From assembly GCA_030526225.1 (NCBI GenBank), contig JAUNDF010000033.1, positions 1-6,890 on the forward strand: 6,890 bases of DNA, in the 5' to 3' direction. The stretch is from Clostridia bacterium. Lineage in GTDB: Bacteria > Bacillota > Clostridia > Christensenellales > Aristaeellaceae. A program made the position numbers and the translations under genes. Under the pieces are notes generated by a model. The model was not told the DNA's origin. It did no database searches and saw only the letters and a list, made by a program, of their open reading frames with translations. Of the stretch, positions 287 through 6,890 are shown piece by piece; within the stretch, counting starts at the first letter, position 1, and each line of letters starts with the position of its first letter.

Positions 287-913
287 GTGAATGATGTGGG
301 AATTTTCGGAAGAGAGATTGATTTAAGCAGCAGTGCAGTCATCGGCTCCGGGCAGTGCAGCCAGGTCTATGCTTATGGTGATGACTTTGCCGTGAAGCTT
401 TTTTTTGATACAATTCCGGAAGAAGAAATCCGGAAGGAATATCACAATACCCTTGTCTTATGTCAAAACGGACTTGCGGCCGTCAAGGTGTACGAATATG
501 TCAATCATCATGGCCGTATCGGAATTCTGATGCAGCGACTGAAGGGAATGTCGGTTGAACGGGCAATCCTTCAGCAGCCGGACAAGCTGGGCTTTTTCGC
601 CGTAAAAATGGCTCGCAATCTGGCGGCCATTCATCAAAAGGATGTTCGGGATGCCGGTCTTTCTGCCTCTTCCGATTTCTATCTGGCCTGCATCGACAAT
701 TGCCTGAAGGACAGGTGGATTTCCGAAGCTGAAAGCCGGAAGCTGAGGGAAATGGTGCGTGCTGTCCCCAATAAAGATAACCTGATTCACGGCGATTATC
801 ACATTTTGAACATGATGATTGAGCAGGATGAAATCAGAATGATTGACCTTGCCGATGTCCGGACAGGCCATCCAATCTATCCAGCCCCAGAAATCACGGA
901 CTGCAGTTTGTGA
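287..913 (+). CDS. Phosphotransferase enzyme family protein (APH / choline-kinase-like fold), apparently C-terminally truncated
   Basis: 208-aa ORF starting at GTG 287. An alternative in-frame GTG at 296 lies 8 nt after GAAGGG (282-287). Kinase-like landmarks occur in order: G-rich loop IGSGQCSQVY, AVK lysine, LIHGDYHILN (HGD at 788-796), IDLAD (842-856) and GHP (866-874). It is colinear with the paralog at 3202..4179. Only 12 residues follow GHP here, against 137 in the paralog. Confidence 0.75.
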   Translation: MNDVGIFGREIDLSSSAVIGSGQCSQVYAYGDDFAVKLFFDTIPEEEIRKEYHNTLVLCQNGLAAVKVYEYVNHHGRIGILMQRLKGMSVERAILQQPDKLGFFAVKMARNLAAIHQKDVRDAGLSASSDFYLACIDNCLKDRWISEAESRKLREMVRAVPNKDNLIHGDYHILNMMIEQDEIRMIDLADVRTGHPIYPAPEITDCSL

Positions 914-3189
914 CAACGCCTTATATCATGTTTCTGGATTCAGACGATACCTATTACCCCGATACCGTCGCCATGTGTCTTCAAAAAATGGCAGAGCATC
1001 ATCCGGATATTGTGGTTTTCCGGATGGCATTCCTCAAGCAGAACGATTCCGTTCAGGAAATTCTGACCGACAGATCCCTTTGGAATCCCATGCAGGAAGA
1101 GGTGGTGCTGACAGGCCGTGAAAAGTACTGTGACGGGCTGTATTCTACCATTCAGTTTTCGGGCAGCAACAAGATGTTCAGGCGGGAACTGATTCAGGCA
1201 AACAACATTGCCTTTGACGAAAAAATCAACATGGCTGAAGACGCGTATTTTGTCATGCTGTGTTTTGAAAAAGCCGGCAAAATTGTTGTTCTGCCTCAGT
1301 TTATCGGCCATTGCTACTTTCTCAACAGCAGCTCCTCTGTGCAGAGCGCGGACAAACCGAGAACAGAAGTTTTGCAGTTCGCCTATGGTTTTCAGCGGAT
1401 GTTTGACCTTTTGATTGAGCATGCTGCGCCAAGCAATCACTTTATTCTTTCCATGCTCCATGCATATATCATGATGGCTTACGGTTCCTCTCAGCTTACA
1501 CTGGAGGACTGGAAGGTGATTCAGGCGAAAATGCGTCCCTATGCGGAAAGATTGACCCCTCCTCCGGAAAACAAGTTCTTCACGAAGGAAGAGGGACTGC
1601 TGGTGTATGAATTCGTCCGGAAGAATATCCTGGAGGAGAAAACGGCTGAAAACTTCAAGCACCATGATTATTTCGACGGTACAGAAAATCTCCTTCGGAT
1701 TCTATGCGAGAACAGGGAAAGCGATTTCGGAAAATTCTATCATTTTTCGGATATCACTTCGATTCATGCATATCAGCGCACCGTTCCTCTGTACAGCCAT
1801 GAATCCTATGACAAGCTGGTTCATATTCAGACCGATGTCGGAGAGAAAAATGTTCTGACTACCAACAGCATCCGGGTTTACGCTTATGATTTTGACGAAA
1901 GCGATGCCATCAAAACCATTCCGGTATCGGAGCAGGAGTGCATCGAGCTTGGCAGCTGCCTGACCAATGTGATTGCAAATCAAGTGACCTTTTTGATGAT
2001 GGAATCTCTGCCCAGGGCGCAGCTTTTGAACGACCGGACCTACAACGATTCCATCAGCGGCATTATGATCTGCAGTGCTTTGGGCAAGTATGCCATGGTG
2101 GCTGCCAATGTTCCCGGCGAATTCACCTCGCCGTTTTCGGTGATTTTCCCCAAAAAGGGAATCGATACCGGCTATCTGAACCTGCTCTTTGCCCTCAGAA
2201 ATCCGGACATTACCCAAATTGTTGCCGCAAACAGCTGGGTTGTGCTCAATTGCTTTGAGCGGATGTTTGCCCAGCTTGAGGAATTCTGCGGCTGTATTGA
2301 AAGCGGAAGGATTGATGCGGCGGACGAGGCGACGCTGAACCTCGCCAGACAGCTGACCGGCCTATGGGTTCCCGACAAAGAACGCGCGGATTTCATCCGC
2401 TGGGCCATGAAAACGCTGCCCAAAGAGCAGGCAATCCGGGTCATTTGGCCCAAGCTGAAGCGGATTGTCGCAAGAGGCGGGGGACGATATGCCCTGTATT
2501 CCGATCAGCTGAAGCCCTGCATTGGAGATATCCCCGTCGTCTCCGGAAATCTGATTACTCCTTTTGGCCTTTTGGCGGAGGAGACCGGGGAACAGCATGT
2601 ATATAAGCTGCGCCTTGACAAAGCCTTTTATGAGTTCATTCCGATGAGTCTTGGCGATGCGGCCGCGCCGGTGCTCTTTTCCGACCTGAAGTGCGGTCAG
2701 ATTTATGAGCTGGTCATTACGAATCATGCCGGTGCCTACCGTATGCGCAGCAATCTCTATATCCAGCCTGTCCGGAAGGAACCGGAGGAGCTATGGTTTG
2801 TCGAGTGTGCAAAGCCGGTATGTGACGGTGCCGGATTGCTTTGTACCGACGCGGAAATCTATCATGTGCTCAAAGAAATCATCGGCTGTGCGCTGTATGA
2901 TTACAGCTATCACTATCAGGCTGAAGATAAAAAACTGACCATCTATGCCGAAACCGATATGGATGAGGCACAGGGTCAGGCGTGTTGTGACCGGATTGCC
3001 GGGCACTTTACAAGCATCGATGGCATTGATAAGTGTCAGCTGTACTTTGTGGAAAAAGAGACCCGGCGCAGGCTTCGGGATCTCCGGCGTTCCCGCTATG
3101 CAATTTCAGGCGATTGCATAGAGCCGGTCAGAAACCTGAACGATCAAGCCATCATCAACAGCATGAACGCCTGGAATCAGATGCGATAA
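910..3189 (+). CDS. Fusion protein: N-terminally incomplete glycosyltransferase family 2 (GT-A) domain plus GH3-family (acyl-acid amido synthetase-like) domain with divergent active-site motifs
   Basis: 759-aa ORF. GTG 910 overlaps the upstream stop (GTGA), and the first ATG is at 928.
Residues 1 to about 145 carry GT2 signatures: YIMFLDSDD (DXD at 937-948), NKMFRRELI and NMAEDAYF.
Residues from about 258 to 759 carry GH3 signatures: YQRTVPLYSHESYDKL, KTIPVSEQ, IWPKLKRIV..GG.YALY, FYEFIP and YELVITNHAGAYRMR.
The start codon is uncertain because I found no clear RBS. Confidence 0.85.
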   Translation: MTTPYIMFLDSDDTYYPDTVAMCLQKMAEHHPDIVVFRMAFLKQNDSVQEILTDRSLWNPMQEEVVLTGREKYCDGLYSTIQFSGSNKMFRRELIQANNIAFDEKINMAEDAYFVMLCFEKAGKIVVLPQFIGHCYFLNSSSSVQSADKPRTEVLQFAYGFQRMFDLLIEHAAPSNHFILSMLHAYIMMAYGSSQLTLEDWKVIQAKMRPYAERLTPPPENKFFTKEEGLLVYEFVRKNILEEKTAENFKHHDYFDGTENLLRILCENRESDFGKFYHFSDITSIHAYQRTVPLYSHESYDKLVHIQTDVGEKNVLTTNSIRVYAYDFDESDAIKTIPVSEQECIELGSCLTNVIANQVTFLMMESLPRAQLLNDRTYNDSISGIMICSALGKYAMVAANVPGEFTSPFSVIFPKKGIDTGYLNLLFALRNPDITQIVAANSWVVLNCFERMFAQLEEFCGCIESGRIDAADEATLNLARQLTGLWVPDKERADFIRWAMKTLPKEQAIRVIWPKLKRIVARGGGRYALYSDQLKPCIGDIPVVSGNLITPFGLLAEETGEQHVYKLRLDKAFYEFIPMSLGDAAAPVLFSDLKCGQIYELVITNHAGAYRMRSNLYIQPVRKEPEELWFVECAKPVCDGAGLLCTDAEIYHVLKEIIGCALYDYSYHYQAEDKKLTIYAETDMDEAQGQACCDRIAGHFTSIDGIDKCQLYFVEKETRRRLRDLRRSRYAISGDCIEPVRNLNDQAIINSMNAWNQMR

Positions 3190-3201
3190 GGGTTGGTTTA
3201 C

Positions 3202-4179
3202 ATGGAAGACATCATCGATTTTTCCCGCCTTCCGGTGATGGGTGAGGGCGTAACGGCGGTCACCTATCTGCTCAGTGAAACAAGGGTAATAAAAGCCTAT
3301 AAAAAAGGCGTTCCCCTTGAGATGATTGAGTCGGAACGAAAAATCTCGGAGACTCTCTGCCGGTATGGCATCCGCACGCCGGTATGCTATGAAACAGTCA
3401 GGACGGCAGAAGGGTATGGCAATGTCTATCAGGCCATGCGCGGCGGTACCCTGACAAAACGGATGCTGCAGGCAGACGAAGAGGGCCTGCGGGCGTGGAT
3501 GCAGCAATACGCCGGTTTGGCAAAGGAATTGCACGGCGTACGGGCTGAACATGATATTAACGATTGCCTTGAAATCTACCGGTTTCACCTGAAACTCACA
3601 AGGGACTTGCTGACAGATGAGGTCATTTCACTGGCAGAGAGAACCTTGAGCGGCATTCCCGGCGCAAGCAATCTGCTTCATGGGGATATGTCCCCGGGAA
3701 ATATCATGCTGGATGAGGGACAGCTTTACTTTATTGATTTGGCAACCGTCACCAAGGGACACCCTGCTTTGGACCTGACCGTGCCCTATATGGTGACCCT
3801 CATGTGGCCAAGGTTTGCCGCTATGGCAAAGGCCATGACGGAGGACGAGCGCGCTGCGCAGCCTGCCTGGTTTGGGTACCTGAACCGATATACGGAAAAA
3901 GCCCTGAGCGAGGAAGCGGGCCGCATGGCCTGGGTCAGCTTTTTGAAGGAATACTTCTGCCTTGCATCAAACGAAGAGGCACTTGTTTGGGAGATCACGA
4001 AGCTGATTCGCTATATTGCGATGGTAAAATACTGCTTGTGCGGCTCCTTTCAGGCAATCTACCCTGATGAGCTGGTTCATAAAATGGCTGAATTTTATAG
4101 CGGTCAGCTGCTTTCCTGTGAGGAGCCTGACCTGGAGTTGTTGAAAGATGATCGATGGAATCTTCAAAAAGCTGAGTAA
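3202..4179 (+). CDS. Phosphotransferase enzyme family protein (APH / choline-kinase-like), full length
   Basis: ATG 3202 lies 9 nt after AAGGG (3188-3192) and 12 nt after the upstream stop. The track's TTG 3193 has no spacer to that RBS. Motifs: MGEGVTAVTY, VIKAYKK, LLHGDMSPGN (HGD at 3679-3687), FIDLATVTKGHPALDL, followed by a C-terminal region of about 135 aa. Confidence 0.9.
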   Translation: MEDIIDFSRLPVMGEGVTAVTYLLSETRVIKAYKKGVPLEMIESERKISETLCRYGIRTPVCYETVRTAEGYGNVYQAMRGGTLTKRMLQADEEGLRAWMQQYAGLAKELHGVRAEHDINDCLEIYRFHLKLTRDLLTDEVISLAERTLSGIPGASNLLHGDMSPGNIMLDEGQLYFIDLATVTKGHPALDLTVPYMVTLMWPRFAAMAKAMTEDERAAQPAWFGYLNRYTEKALSEEAGRMAWVSFLKEYFCLASNEEALVWEITKLIRYIAMVKYCLCGSFQAIYPDELVHKMAEFYSGQLLSCEEPDLELLKDDRWNLQKAE

Positions 4180-5851
4180 CATCCAGATAGTGGTCAGCAT
4201 TACCGCTTCTATTTCCATGATTGTGGATGGCGCGTTTATCGGCAGAAGTCTGGGCATGGACGGTGTGGCGGCAGCGGGGTTGATTACCCCTGTTTTAATG
4301 ATCATTCTGGCCTTCAGCGGCGTTCTGAGTGCCGGCGGTCAGCTGATTGTCGGCCGGAAAATGGGCAGCGGAGACAGGGATGCTGCTATCGGTGCCATGT
4401 CCGTATGCTTTTTCATGGCGGTATTCAGCGGGCTGTTCCTTACGGGGCTTGTTTTTGCCTTTACCAACCCGATCTGCATGCTTTTGGGTGCCCGGCCGGG
4501 GTCAAAGCTGCTGGCAATGTCCGGGCAGTATCTGCGGGGCTATGTGCTTGGCAATGCAGGCATCATCGGTGTGCTGAGCATGGTTCCCCTTTTGAATCTT
4601 GACGGAGATAAAAAAAGAAGCTTTGCCGCCGCGTGGATAATCACGATGACGGATATTGTTTTGGACATTGCGGCGGTGCTTGTCTTTCCGGGGCAGATAT
4701 TCGCCATCGCGCTGGCAACATCCATCAGCTATCTGGTTGGCTTTATGGTGATGTGCGGCCATTTTGCGAAGAATGACCGGCATTTTATGCTGAAAATCCG
4801 CCTGAAAAACCTCCCGTGGCGGGACGGCATACAGATGCTTGTGCTGGGACTCCCCGCGGCGCTGCAAAAGGCTTTGAGAACCTTGCTCAGCTTTACGGTG
4901 AATCATATCCTTTTGGCGGTAGGCGGTCCTGTTGCCCTGGCAGGGTTTTCCATTGTGAGTCAGATTGGGAACCTGCTGAATTCAGTCGGTCAGGGGCTCA
5001 GCGCCGCAACGCTGACCATCGCCGGTGTGATGCATGGGGAAAAGATCAAAAAGAATCTGCGGGATCTCTATAGAGCCTTTATCAAGTACTCGGTTTGGTG
5101 GAATCTGGTGGTGGCGGCCATTGGCATCATCGGGGCTGATGTGCTCGTAAGCATCTTCATGTCTGCCAAAAAGGTAGATGTTTCGGCGGTTGTGATGGGC
5201 GTGAGGATTTTCTCCCTTGATTTTGTATTCTACTCGCTCTGCCTTTGTGCCAAAAGCTACTATCAGGGGATTAAGCGAATGTCTGTGAATTACCTGATTA
5301 CGATTGTGGAAGGCTATGGATGCATCGCATTCTTCACATTCGTCCTCGGTCACTTCTTCGGGTTCTACGGCGTATGTCTGGGCTATGGCCTGGGAGATGC
5401 CGTCAGTCTTTTGAGCATTGCGGCGGGCGTATGGATGACGAAGAAAAGATTTCCCAAGCGTCTGGATGACTATCTGCTTTTGCAGGAAGATGAGATGATA
5501 CCCGAAGACCGGGTCTACCACGTCGATGTAACGGGGCCGGAGGACATCGGCCGCATCAGCAGAGAATCCGCTGCCTTTATGCAACAACACTTGCGCACCC
5601 GGGAAAGCATAGCGGATATGGAAACCCTGCTGATGCCCCTGATGCTGCAGGGCTTTCCGAATACGAAAAAACCGGCGGCAGAAATCAGCCTGATTTGTCA
5701 GGATACTGCTGCTGTGCTTCTGGTCAGCGATAACTGTACCGGATTCTCGCTGGTTGATGCCATCAGCAAAGAAAAAATCCCCTCCGCGGTACAGGAGATG
5801 GAACATTATCAGGTGCTGGGCATCAACAAAACCAAAATCCGACTTCACTGA
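4148..5851 (+). CDS. MATE (MOP superfamily) efflux transporter with an appended C-terminal cytoplasmic domain of about 135 aa
   Basis: 567-aa ORF. ATG 4148 lies 10 nt after GGAG (4134-4137) and overlaps the kinase gene by 32 nt. The N-terminus, SMIVDGAFIGRSLGMDGVAAAGLITPV, is the typical MATE TM1 signature. Hydrophobic segments continue to about residue 430. Residues from about 431 to 567 (nt 5438-5848) are hydrophilic. Confidence 0.9.
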   Translation: MIDGIFKKLSNIQIVVSITASISMIVDGAFIGRSLGMDGVAAAGLITPVLMIILAFSGVLSAGGQLIVGRKMGSGDRDAAIGAMSVCFFMAVFSGLFLTGLVFAFTNPICMLLGARPGSKLLAMSGQYLRGYVLGNAGIIGVLSMVPLLNLDGDKKRSFAAAWIITMTDIVLDIAAVLVFPGQIFAIALATSISYLVGFMVMCGHFAKNDRHFMLKIRLKNLPWRDGIQMLVLGLPAALQKALRTLLSFTVNHILLAVGGPVALAGFSIVSQIGNLLNSVGQGLSAATLTIAGVMHGEKIKKNLRDLYRAFIKYSVWWNLVVAAIGIIGADVLVSIFMSAKKVDVSAVVMGVRIFSLDFVFYSLCLCAKSYYQGIKRMSVNYLITIVEGYGCIAFFTFVLGHFFGFYGVCLGYGLGDAVSLLSIAAGVWMTKKRFPKRLDDYLLLQEDEMIPEDRVYHVDVTGPEDIGRISRESAAFMQQHLRTRESIADMETLLMPLMLQGFPNTKKPAAEISLICQDTAAVLLVSDNCTGFSLVDAISKEKIPSAVQEMEHYQVLGINKTKIRLH

Positions 5852-5879: not shown

Positions 5880-5925
5880 ATAAAGCCCGCTCTGACATCA
5901 TCGCCGGAGCGGGCTTTATCTTGTC
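5880..5925 (+). terminator. Rho-independent-type terminator of the operon
   Basis: Perfect 13-bp stem: ATAAAGCCCGCTC (5880-5892) pairs with GAGCGGGCTTTAT (5907-5919). The loop is 14 nt and the tail is moderately T-rich (CTTGTC). It starts 29 nt after the MATE stop codon. Confidence 0.6.
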
Positions 5926-6187: not shown

Positions 6188-6214
6188 GGTTACAGGCAAA
6201 CCAGGGAGGAACAC

Positions 6215-6890
6215 ATGATGGCCAAGGAAAAGACCAAGCGACTTGTGGCGCTGGTAATGGCGACGATGATGCTCATGTCGTCTGCCGGCATCGGCACACT
6301 GGCTGAAGAACTGTCCGGCGGCGATGCTGCACAGGCTGTTGTCACCGAAGCAACGGAAGCGCCTGCCGAGACCGAGGCTCCTGCCCAGACGGCAGCCCCC
6401 GAAGCAACGGAAGCCCCCGAAGAGACCGAGGCTCCTGCAGACACCGAAGCCCCCGCCGAAGATACCCGTTCTGCCCTGCAGAAGCTGGTGGAGGACATGG
6501 GCGGTGCCTATGTGTTTACCCTGCGCGGAAATACCACGGTGTATGCAACCGAGTGGTGCAGCGAGCAGAAGGTTCTGGGCACCATTGCCGATGCGGATGC
6601 CATGCTGTACGCCACCGAGTACAAAACCGCCAATGAAGCGCATCCCAGTGTTCGTGTGCTGTTTGTAAGCGGCGACAAGACCGTGGATGGCTTTGTGCGC
6701 GTTGAGGATCTGTCAGACACCGTTATGGATGCTGCCGCCATGGCCGCTTCCGGCAAAACGCTGGATGCTGTGCTGGCCGGTGTGAATGTGAAGATTGCAC
6801 CTGTGGCCTTTACGGCAGCTGTCGAGGCGGAAGCGCCTGCAGATACGCCTGCGCCCGAAACCACCGAGATGCCCGAAACCACCGAGGCTC
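6215..6890 (+). CDS. Secreted or cell-surface protein (partial, continues past the window end) with a signal peptide, Thr/Glu/Ala/Pro-rich tandem linkers and a globular module of about 115 aa
   Basis: Absent from the ORF track because it has no stop in the window. The RBS AGGGAGG (6203-6209) lies 5 nt before ATG 6215. Hand translation gives MMAKEKTKRLVALVMATMMLMSSAGIGTLA/EELSGG..., with a K-rich n-region, a hydrophobic core and an A-x-A-like cleavage site. TEAP-type repeats follow, then TRSALQKLVEDMGGAYVFTLRGNTTVYATEW...VRVLFVSGDKTVDGFVRVEDLS, then a second PETTE linker. The frame stays open for 225 codons to the window end. Confidence 0.8.
   Translation, partial: MMAKEKTKRLVALVMATMMLMSSAGIGTLAEELSGGDAAQAVVTEATEAPAETEAPAQTAAPEATEAPEETEAPADTEAPAEDTRSALQKLVEDMGGAYVFTLRGNTTVYATEWCSEQKVLGTIADADAMLYATEYKTANEAHPSVRVLFVSGDKTVDGFVRVEDLSDTVMDAAAMAASGKTLDAVLAGVNVKIAPVAFTAAVEAEAPADTPAPETTEMPETTEA
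6347..6454 (+). repeat. Two tandem copies of a 54-nt (18-codon) unit inside the secreted-protein CDS
   Basis: 6347-6400 encodes EATEAPAETEAPAQTAAP and 6401-6454 encodes EATEAPEETEAPADTEAP. My hand alignment gives 45 of 54 identical positions. A separate 18-nt-period repeat of CCCGAAACCACCGAG occurs at 6854-6868 and 6872-6886. Confidence 0.85.

Follow-up and report, generated by a model that had tools for sequence, protein, structure and literature searches.

A 5'-truncated member of an established GT2::GH3 fusion family in a kinase and MATE transporter cassette of a Clostridia bacterium

The GT2::GH3 reading frame, its family, and the junction at nucleotide 880

The window analyzed here is a stretch of 6,890 nucleotides (nt) of contig JAUNDF010000033.1 from a Clostridia bacterium (assembly GCA_030526225.1), and the gene in question is an open reading frame (ORF) in which part of a GT2 glycosyltransferase is joined to a GH3 domain. 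The frame runs unbroken on the + strand from 910 to 3189, starts with GTG, and encodes 759 amino acids (aa), compared with 836-874 aa in intact relatives. Pfam places the GH3 N-terminal domain PF03321 at aa 259-543 (E=3.3e-33, 115.7 bits, gathering score 23.6), GH3_M PF23571 at aa 569-613 (E=3.6e-9, 37 bits, gathering score 23.6), and Glycos_transf_2 PF00535 at aa 2-95 (E=1e-6, 29.2 bits, gathering score 23.3), with a PF13632 match over aa 5-136. Since the PF00535 match spans profile positions 78-164 of 168 only, the N-terminus of the GT2 domain is missing from the ORF. Pfam, the alignment, and the motif table show that the C-terminal two thirds of the GT2 (GT-A) domain remain at 913..1359 (+ strand), with the N-terminal 77 residues gone. 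This part contains FRMAF, the DXD motif as DSDD (aa 10-13, D10-S-D-D13, nt 937-948), and the acidic (ED) motif as NMAEDAYF (aa 107-114, nt 1228-1251, E110-D111). Both DSDD and ED are invariant in the alignment of the ORF with its homologs. A preliminary description of this DNA had quoted both motifs at the correct positions.

The GT2 part is followed by a helical region (aa 151-257, 1360..1680, + strand) and then by a GH3-fold region (1684..3186, + strand), in which the two Pfam GH3 domains are succeeded by a C-terminal domain at about aa 640-759. The AlphaFold2 (AF2) model, which has a mean predicted local distance difference test (pLDDT) score of 74 and was built from an input alignment of 13 sequences, puts helices at aa 151-170, 176-192, 198-212, 226-241, and 246-250. 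The preliminary description had taken this stretch for a helical linker. Its helical nature was confirmed, but standalone relatives of 330-360 aa span GT2 plus the helical region (profile 1 to ~330) and, therefore, the stretch is part of the GT2 module and not a free linker. When the model was compared to the PDB with Foldseek, the best 30 matches were plant GH3 structures (GH3.12, GH3.5, JAR1, GH3.6, and GH3.15; E 7e-22 to 4e-12), followed by PaaK-type ANL ligases, and S. aureus TarS matched the GT2 part. As modeled, the GH3 half of the ORF is of the GH3/ANL-type fold. Pfam, AF2, and Foldseek, thus, agree with the preliminary description on a continuous ORF composed of a GT2 fragment, a helical region, and GH3, and its assignment of residues 258-759 to GH3 was reproduced by both the profile search and the structural search (AF2, Foldseek).

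The architecture itself, which the preliminary description did not recognize, turned out to be widespread. The first homology search brought up 11 full-length relatives (836-874 aa) that carry PF00535+PF03321+PF23571; identities were 41-61%, plus one of 29%. The preliminary description had raised the existence of such full-length versions as a question. Two of the 11 are named 'GH3 auxin-responsive promoter family protein' by NCBI. P0002-P0004 are 59-61% identical to the ORF over 99-100% of the query. The ORF covers positions 88-852 of 853 of the family profile and is colinear with the ~850-aa members except for the N-terminal deletion. When 1.84 billion representatives were searched with the profile, 500 matched at E<=1e-30, and the proteins that were classed come mostly from the best 150 of these. 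The classes were full-length fusions (46 proteins, about 830-890 aa), fusions without the GH3 C-terminal domain (26, the majority at about 670-750 aa), standalone proteins of GT2 plus the helical region (23, mostly about 330-360 aa), and standalone GH3 proteins (54, mostly about 500-610 aa). At least 72 fusion representatives (50% identity) were among the best 150 matches of this library-wide search.

With the full-length member P0021 as the query, 379 clusters were found at E<=1e-20, and nearly all of the best 120 of them are ~860-aa fusions (Lachnospiraceae, Selenomonadaceae, Ruminococcus, Synergistaceae). The P0021 matches bear the NCBI names 'GH3 auxin-responsive promoter family protein' or 'GH3 family domain-containing protein', the latter for a protein of the cultured Butyrivibrio sp. 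YAB3001. Genomic loci of the family were found in Oribacterium sp. C9 and in metagenome-assembled genomes (MAGs) of Lachnospiraceae, Eubacteriales, Clostridia, and Synergistaceae, and the JGI label for family members is 'glycosyltransferase involved in cell wall biosynthesis'. Judged by these database matches, the fusion architecture is common among anaerobes of the gut and rumen and is already listed in databases under generic names, while being uncharacterized. The claim of a novel architecture, thus, largely falls away, since PF00535+PF03321 fusions of ~850 aa are common and generically annotated. A literature search found no paper on a GT2-GH3 fusion or coupling, in agreement with the statement in the preliminary description that no such coupling had been described.

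LD(S/A/G)DD and (A/G)ED are kept throughout the GT2 modules of the family. These modules have 'HN(C/S)' where a canonical GT2 protein, P0153, the sole comparator, has NDGS/DDGS, and they carry a conserved 'PSSPRN' ahead of DXD (e.g., P0003 aa 40-49, 75-84). HN(C/S) and PSSPRN suggest that these modules are a GT-A subfamily of their own, which may use an unusual donor.

The cause of the missing GT2 N-terminus is seen immediately upstream of the ORF. A gene for an APH-fold kinase lies at 287..913 (+ strand; Pfam APH E=1.6e-17, profile positions 5-204 of 239) and is 3'-truncated to 208 aa, compared with about 303-321 aa in intact orthologs. In a blastx comparison, it is 59% identical to the kinase of locus L001, a Lachnospiraceae MAG, over aa 9-198 of 310, and the match ends at nt 880. 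Similarity to the L001 GT2::GH3 protein begins at the same nucleotide, at aa 78 of 853, in another frame. At the deletion junction (878..882, + strand), the kinase homology (frame 2) and the GT2 homology (frame 1, '...SSPRNHGLQFVTTPYIMFLDSDD') abut with an overlap of at most 1 nt. The missing sequence is the equivalent of 735 nt of L001 (~0.73 kb) and includes the last ~112 kinase codons (the 3' third) and 77 codons from the start of GT2, together with the intergenic region between them. The frame-1 translation 5' of GTG 910 reads ...SSPRNHGLQFVTTPYIMFLDSDD, which is family consensus, and stop codons occur farther upstream. The kinase frame reads 11 codons into the GT2 sequence out of frame (881-910) and ends at a TGA stop (911-913) that overlaps GTG 910 (GTGA).

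The ORF belongs to the established, uncharacterized ~850-aa GT2::GH3 family as a 5'-truncated gene copy, and by comparison with L001 a single ~0.73-kb deletion with its junction at nt 880 made the GT2 remnant and cut the upstream kinase gene. The GT2 part is a remnant, as the preliminary description had called it, and its form is the product of this deletion rather than a designed architecture. In the GT-A fold, the first ~80-90 residues form the Rossmann-like nucleotide-binding half, as in GT2 enzymes such as SpsA, TarS, and TarP. Glycosyl transfer by the window copy is not expected because this half is missing. No repeat was detected at the junction, and the breakpoint flanks in L001, the only locus in which both breakpoints were located, share at most 1 nt. 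A programmed frameshift joining the kinase to GT2 over 880-913 was also considered and rejected, as no slippery heptamer was seen in the sequence.

No Shine-Dalgarno-like sequence was found upstream of GTG 910 or ATG 928. The start picked by the source's gene caller is the in-frame GTG at 1516, which has GGAGG at 1503-1507 ahead of it (span 1503..1518, + strand). The resulting product, P0001 (557 aa, 100% identity), retains the GH3 part; the GT2 remnant is gone from it, as is the larger part of the helical region. This GGAGG may be incidental because it falls within conserved LEDW codons and, hence, is also present in intact genes.

The closest relative, L002/L003, carries a lesion of its own. 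An in-frame TAG (L003:4111-4113 = L002:350-352; Eubacteriales MAG S22M_St_60 and Logan SRR24915835) replaces the Q of a conserved LQFV, nine codons 3' of the window breakpoint, and separates an 87-aa GT2 N-terminus from an intact 760-codon frame. A frameshift was considered for this lesion and rejected in favor of the in-frame TAG.

Nucleotide-binding motifs of the GH3 half

The motifs with which GH3 proteins bind nucleotides are SSGTSxGxxK (M1), YGSSE (M2), and YRxGD (M3) in the accessible text of PMC12493201. In that text, the 2025 description of OlsH, a planctomycete GH3 protein that is the lyso-ornithine lipid synthetase of Singulisphaera acidiphila, the motifs of OlsH are TSGTTQGATK, TYPCSE, and IGD, and a serine-to-alanine change in M1 or M2 (which of the two is left unspecified) abolished activity (PMC12493201). 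We audited the motifs by hmmalign of 137 relatives and by profile alignment to PBS3. At M1 (aa 327-330, nt 1888-1899, + strand), both alignments give DFDE for the canonical TSGT; the aligned residues are D327-F-D-E-S-D-A-I-K335, and the terminal K/R alone is kept, as it is in all subclade members. At M2 (aa 551-552, nt 2560-2565, + strand), PF stands for the canonical SE. The S-E falls opposite P551-F552 or L-I depending on the alignment, and neither is an S/T-E pair. At M3, aligned with G608-A-Y-R-M-R-S-N-L616, Y-R is retained and L616 (nt 2755-2757, + strand) stands for the canonical D, which is I, M, or S in relatives. The lysine of a C-terminal Q-x-K-P-(V/I)-(R/H), which is kept in 46/52 standalone relatives, is replaced by E738 in the window (nt 3121-3123, + strand; hmmalign). 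By analogy with ANL enzymes, we infer that this C-terminal-domain lysine is the adenylation lysine.

The replacements are shared by the window protein and its 13 subclade relatives, in which M1 reads D-F/I/V-N/D-E/D, M2 reads P-F/Y, and the Asp of M3 is L/I/M/S. The C-terminal lysine position is variable in the subclade (E, Q, P, V, or L, with K in 2/14). In the alignment of the family profile to PBS3, YDFNES..R lies opposite SSGTSGGxxK and YRMRTN lies opposite YRMRVGD. Going by these alignments, the GH3 half of the subclade retains the GH3 fold with all three nucleotide-binding motifs replaced and the C-terminal lysine not conserved. Acyl-acid amido synthetase chemistry, which the preliminary description had implied by pointing to the plant enzymes, is unlikely in the ORF because the motifs are all replaced in its subclade. 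The GH3 half of the subclade is strongly conserved with motifs of its own: YAYDFNES, TFLMMES, ITPFG, and YRMRTN. Since the replacement residues (YAYDFNES, ITPFG, YRMRTN) are themselves conserved, the GH3 domain is suggested to be still under constraint.

Across the family, the three motifs and the lysine are distributed unevenly. All four features were found in 38/52 standalone GH3 relatives (none in 4/52), in 6/36 full-length fusions outside the window's subclade (none in 18/36), in 0/26 fusions without the C-domain (none in 24/26), and in 0/14 members of the window's subclade (none in 12/14). The fusions with all four features are P0021, P0022, P0043, P0055, P0061, and P0068. In a midpoint-rooted neighbor-joining tree of the GH3 part, drawn without support values, canonical members are basal in the fusion-containing clade and a long derived branch leads to the window's subclade at its tip. 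The likely direction of change, as far as such a tree indicates it, is from an active ancestor to repeated loss of the adenylation site.

The fusions without the C-domain (P0035, P0044, P0049, P0050, and others; 26 representatives) end at family-profile position ~717, and their motif-1 loop is often deleted. That their lengths agree suggests that they are a real variant and not the result of truncated gene calls.

The surrounding cassette

Downstream of the ORF, the window contains a second APH-fold kinase gene, which is intact (328 aa, 3193..4179, + strand; Pfam APH E=5.7e-14; 56% identical to L001 APH2), and a gene for a long MATE-family transporter (567 aa, 4148..5851, + strand), which was assigned by Pfam MatE (E=6.5e-24), TIGR00797 (E=5e-31), and synteny and overlaps the second kinase gene by 32 nt. 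The gene order of the window, APH1 (truncated), GT2::GH3, APH2, and MatE, is identical in L001, L003, L005, L010, and L014. The more distant loci L006-L008, L011, L013, and L015 have most or all four cassette genes in another order. Long MatE proteins of the family measure ~570-590 aa. The four genes form a self-contained unit, since unrelated housekeeping genes flank them in the closest relatives. For the identity of the APH-fold kinases, PDB sequences gave no informative match, and TIGR02172 and APH matches were under the family cut-offs. The fusions with canonical motifs have these neighbors: a nonribosomal peptide synthetase (NRPS) C-A-PCP-C module, AMP-binding enzymes, carrier proteins, extra GT2s, an acyltransferase, ABC exporters, a long MatE, and the HxxxD protein described below.

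The MatE protein carries a conserved, cytoplasmic C-terminal extension of ~130 aa (window 5450-5848, aa ~435-567). The window copy of the extension has no Pfam match, and weak precomputed HATPase_c_2 matches (anti-sigma-factor kinase type) fall in the extension in two relatives, whose transporter genes lie at L013:878-2623 and L014:4704-6467. Genes for STAS, STAS-APH fusion, and SpoIIE-type phosphatase proteins recur nearby (L010, L013, and L018). The weak HATPase_c_2 matches together with the nearby STAS/SpoIIE-type genes hint at partner-switching control of the transporter.

A soluble protein of ~430-445 aa co-occurs with GT2::GH3 genes in the wider family and follows them in several loci. 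It was located at L011:12575-13906, L015:8171-9505, L019:936-2231, L017:4033-5337, L007:12371-13684, L008:12308-13615, and L006:7372-8709. This family has no Pfam or NCBIfam match. Its invariant H119-G-x-x-D123 ('YHGLSDxKG') looks like the HxxxD motif of condensation/CAT-type acyltransferases, and its sole match among PDB sequences is a marginal one to a WSD O-acyltransferase (E=0.13). L017 also has two tandem GT2::GH3 genes (L017:7368-12595) of 873 and 864 aa, ~26% identical to the reference of the window family. Upstream of the pair are a carboxylesterase, the HxxxD protein, and an AMP-binding enzyme, and downstream are LigB/AMMECR1, radical SAM, and HD genes.

In L001, the cassette lies between two pairs of paralogous genes for YcaO and B12-binding radical SAM proteins (58-65% identical; L001:3516-8035 and L001:17654-22113), and a 91-aa ORF and a LanM-like gene are also present, so that the locus is a cluster of the type for a ribosomally synthesized and post-translationally modified peptide (RiPP). 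A radical SAM-SPASM gene flanks the cassette in L011. RiPP tailoring was considered as a role for the cassette on these grounds and rejected. The neighbors look coincidental for the subclade because other close relatives lack them and are flanked by WhiA, GGDEF, CheR, and histidine-kinase genes. Two further candidates were rejected: an anti-phage defense system, as no cassette protein has a PADLOC match, and a plasmid-borne element, as tblastn against PLSDB gave GT2-domain matches in Listeria records only.

Just 3' of the MatE stop codon, the window has a perfect 11-bp inverted repeat, AAAGCCCGCTC ... GAGCGGGCTTT (5884-5920). From its sequence and position, it is likely a transcription terminator closing the cassette; a consensus terminator scan did not list it, its T-run being weak. 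A new + strand gene begins at 6215, with GGGAGG ahead of it at 6204-6209, and runs off the window end at 6890. Its product has a signal-peptide-like N-terminus, after which Thr/Glu/Ala/Pro-rich repeats (TEAPAETEAP...) lie on both sides of a globular segment. It is probably secreted or exposed at the surface, with no relation to the cassette.

Interpretation and comparison with known systems

We consider it probable that the ORF is a freshly disabled copy of a family glycosyltransferase gene and that its GH3-fold half no longer adenylates, with function deduced here from sequence. In intact proteins of the subclade, the GT2 half would be catalytic, given that DXD and ED are conserved, and would move a sugar from a nucleotide sugar. 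The GH3-fold half would not adenylate a carboxylate and would more likely be an acceptor-binding or scaffold domain. Phosphorylation of the acceptor or the product would fall to the two kinases, and its export to the MATE protein. The GH3 half of ancestral or canonical members probably does work as an ATP-dependent amide ligase, beside the glycosyltransferase, and these members may belong to small pathways of an NRPS-like or glycoconjugate kind whose last step is export, with a logic like that of Cj1438 (see below). Without the nucleotide-binding half of GT2 and a translation start of its own, the window copy is most likely a pseudogene of very recent origin. The most it would give rise to is a product of the GH3 fold only, started at GTG 1516 or made by coupling through the GTGA overlap. 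The lesion looks young from the state of the remaining codons.

Several points weigh against this reading. The 759-codon frame is wholly intact, and the window protein deviates at 1/48 positions (GT2 remnant) and 7/93 positions (elsewhere) that are invariant in relatives, which is within the range of intact members. Since there is no surplus of changes at invariant positions, these counts do not demonstrate decay, and the lesion alone is established. The GTGA stop/start overlap could allow translational coupling, and the independent lesion in L002/L003 could mean that the N-terminal part of GT2 is dispensable. The motif mapping relies on profile alignments at ~17% identity, and the AF2 model has pLDDT <50 at aa 292-339 and 369-400, i.e., around M1. 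The deletion is known from assembled sequence, and JGI metagenome contigs yielded no intact parental allele, no second copy of the junction, and no near-identical contig.

A change of function in the GH3 half is a tentative and unlikely alternative. According to it, the adenylation site was lost repeatedly in the family, and the new acidic motifs of the subclade (YAYDFNES, ITPFG, and YRMRTN) would make up a repurposed, non-adenylating ligand-binding or regulatory module that works with the two APH-fold kinases and the MATE transporter. If so, the two independent lesions of the GT2 N-terminus, in the window and in L002/L003, would mean that the GH3-fold function survives without glycosyl transfer, and the partners would be the two kinases and a MATE protein with an anti-sigma-factor-kinase-like extension.

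It is also unlikely that the truncated ORF is functional in its own right, with a GH3-fold role independent of glycosyl transfer, the loss of the GT2 N-terminus tolerated or selected, and translation started by the GTGA overlap (910-913) or at GTG 1516 behind GGAGG. The intact frame and the absence of surplus substitutions at family-invariant sites would be expected of such a gene, as would the strong conservation of the GH3-fold half in the subclade, and standalone GH3-type relatives of the fused proteins exist. The L002/L003 stop codon leaves a similarly intact 760-codon frame, but two lesions in two lineages also fit recent, independent pseudogenization. The GGAGG-GTG pair at 1503-1518 offers a start, but its GGAGG lies inside the LEDW codons of intact genes as well, and a Shine-Dalgarno sequence is absent ahead of 910 and 928. 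Moreover, the same deletion destroyed the neighboring kinase gene, which indicates damage rather than design, and the GT2 N-terminus is kept in all other 46 full-length representatives.

Far less likely, the GH3 half would be an active acyl-acid amido synthetase that adenylates an acid, conjugates it to an amine, and is coupled to the glycosyltransferase. Its Pfam GH3 score is far over the threshold, its fold resembles that of the plant GH3 enzymes, the terminal K/R of M1 is kept (K335), and the six fusions with all four features stand beside NRPS or AMP-binding genes. Against this, the window protein and its 13 subclade relatives all have other residues at M1, M2, and M3, the C-terminal lysine position varies among them, a single serine-to-alanine change in M1 or M2 was enough to abolish OlsH activity (PMC12493201, accessible text), and the GT2 partner is truncated in the window. 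Least likely of all is an artefact of metagenome assembly (a mis-join or collapse) that hides an intact kinase and GT2::GH3 gene: the relatives come from MAGs and metagenome assemblies, the coding sequence looks pristine on either side of the junction, and no independent contig shares it, but the two sides are adjacent genes of one cassette in the correct order and orientation, there is no collapse-prone repeat (at most 1 nt shared in L001), and clean internal deletions of 0.7 kb are seldom made by assemblers.

With a disabled glycosyltransferase gene as the preferred reading, the window itself carries modest weight, as a damaged copy of a catalogued gene. The family has more to offer. In hundreds of Firmicutes from gut and rumen, GH3 is fused to what appears to be a distinct GT-A module, clustered with NRPS-like enzymes, glycosyltransferases, and MATE exporters. 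The canonical members are good candidates for an enzyme that glycosylates and amidates one metabolite or surface glycoconjugate, and the motif-less members provide a natural series from an adenylating fold to a putative pseudoenzyme. The cultured hosts Butyrivibrio sp. YAB3001 and Oribacterium sp. C9 make the family testable and could serve as an entry into bacterial GH3 function.

Among known systems, the plant GH3 enzymes (AtGH3.12/PBS3 4EPM, AtGH3.11/JAR1 4EPL, GH3.5, and GH3.6) have the fold and domain order of the window protein. The similarity amounts to E=3e-31 for the profile against PDB sequences, E ~1e-21 with Foldseek, and target-normalized TM-scores of ~0.5-0.6. The window protein differs from them in its low identity (15-18%), the loss of M1-M3 and of the aligned C-terminal lysine, and the fused GT2 module. 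OlsH was the only characterized bacterial GH3 protein found in the literature search, which bears out the remark in the preliminary description that bacterial GH3 proteins are barely characterized. The OlsH model NF052613 matches the window protein weakly (E=7.6e-8, 31.3 bits vs a cut-off of 620). OlsH is a single-module protein encoded in an operon with the O-acyltransferase OlsI (an alpha/beta-hydrolase) in the accessible text of PMC12493201, whereas the window protein is fused to GT2, and an OlsI-type gene is absent from the window and from the cassette of close relatives. OlsH-type aminolipid synthesis was, therefore, rejected on the score and the lack of OlsI.

For the GT2 module of the family, the best solved-structure matches are the S. 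aureus wall-teichoic-acid GT-A enzymes TarS (5TZE/5TZ8; family profile E=2e-17) and TarP (6H1J; E=1e-14). The window copy is without the N-terminal part that bears HN(C/S) and PSSPRN. It shares its architecture and cassette partners with the uncharacterized GT2::GH3 proteins P0002-P0012 and differs from them in lacking the first ~77-90 residues.

An analog in design is Cj1438 of Campylobacter jejuni, in which a GT2 domain (residues 1-325) is joined to an ATP-dependent amidoligase (453-776), and which amidates capsular glucuronate with serinol-P or ethanolamine-P (PMC11800397). Both Cj1438 and, probably, the canonical GT2::GH3 proteins combine a GT-A glycosyltransferase and an ATP-dependent amide-forming domain on one polypeptide. 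The amidoligase of Cj1438, which we take to be an ATP-grasp-type domain, is not annotated as GH3. Cj1438 belongs to an ABC-transporter-dependent capsule locus, in contrast to the kinase/MATE cassette of the window, and the GH3 half of the window protein is without the ATP motifs.

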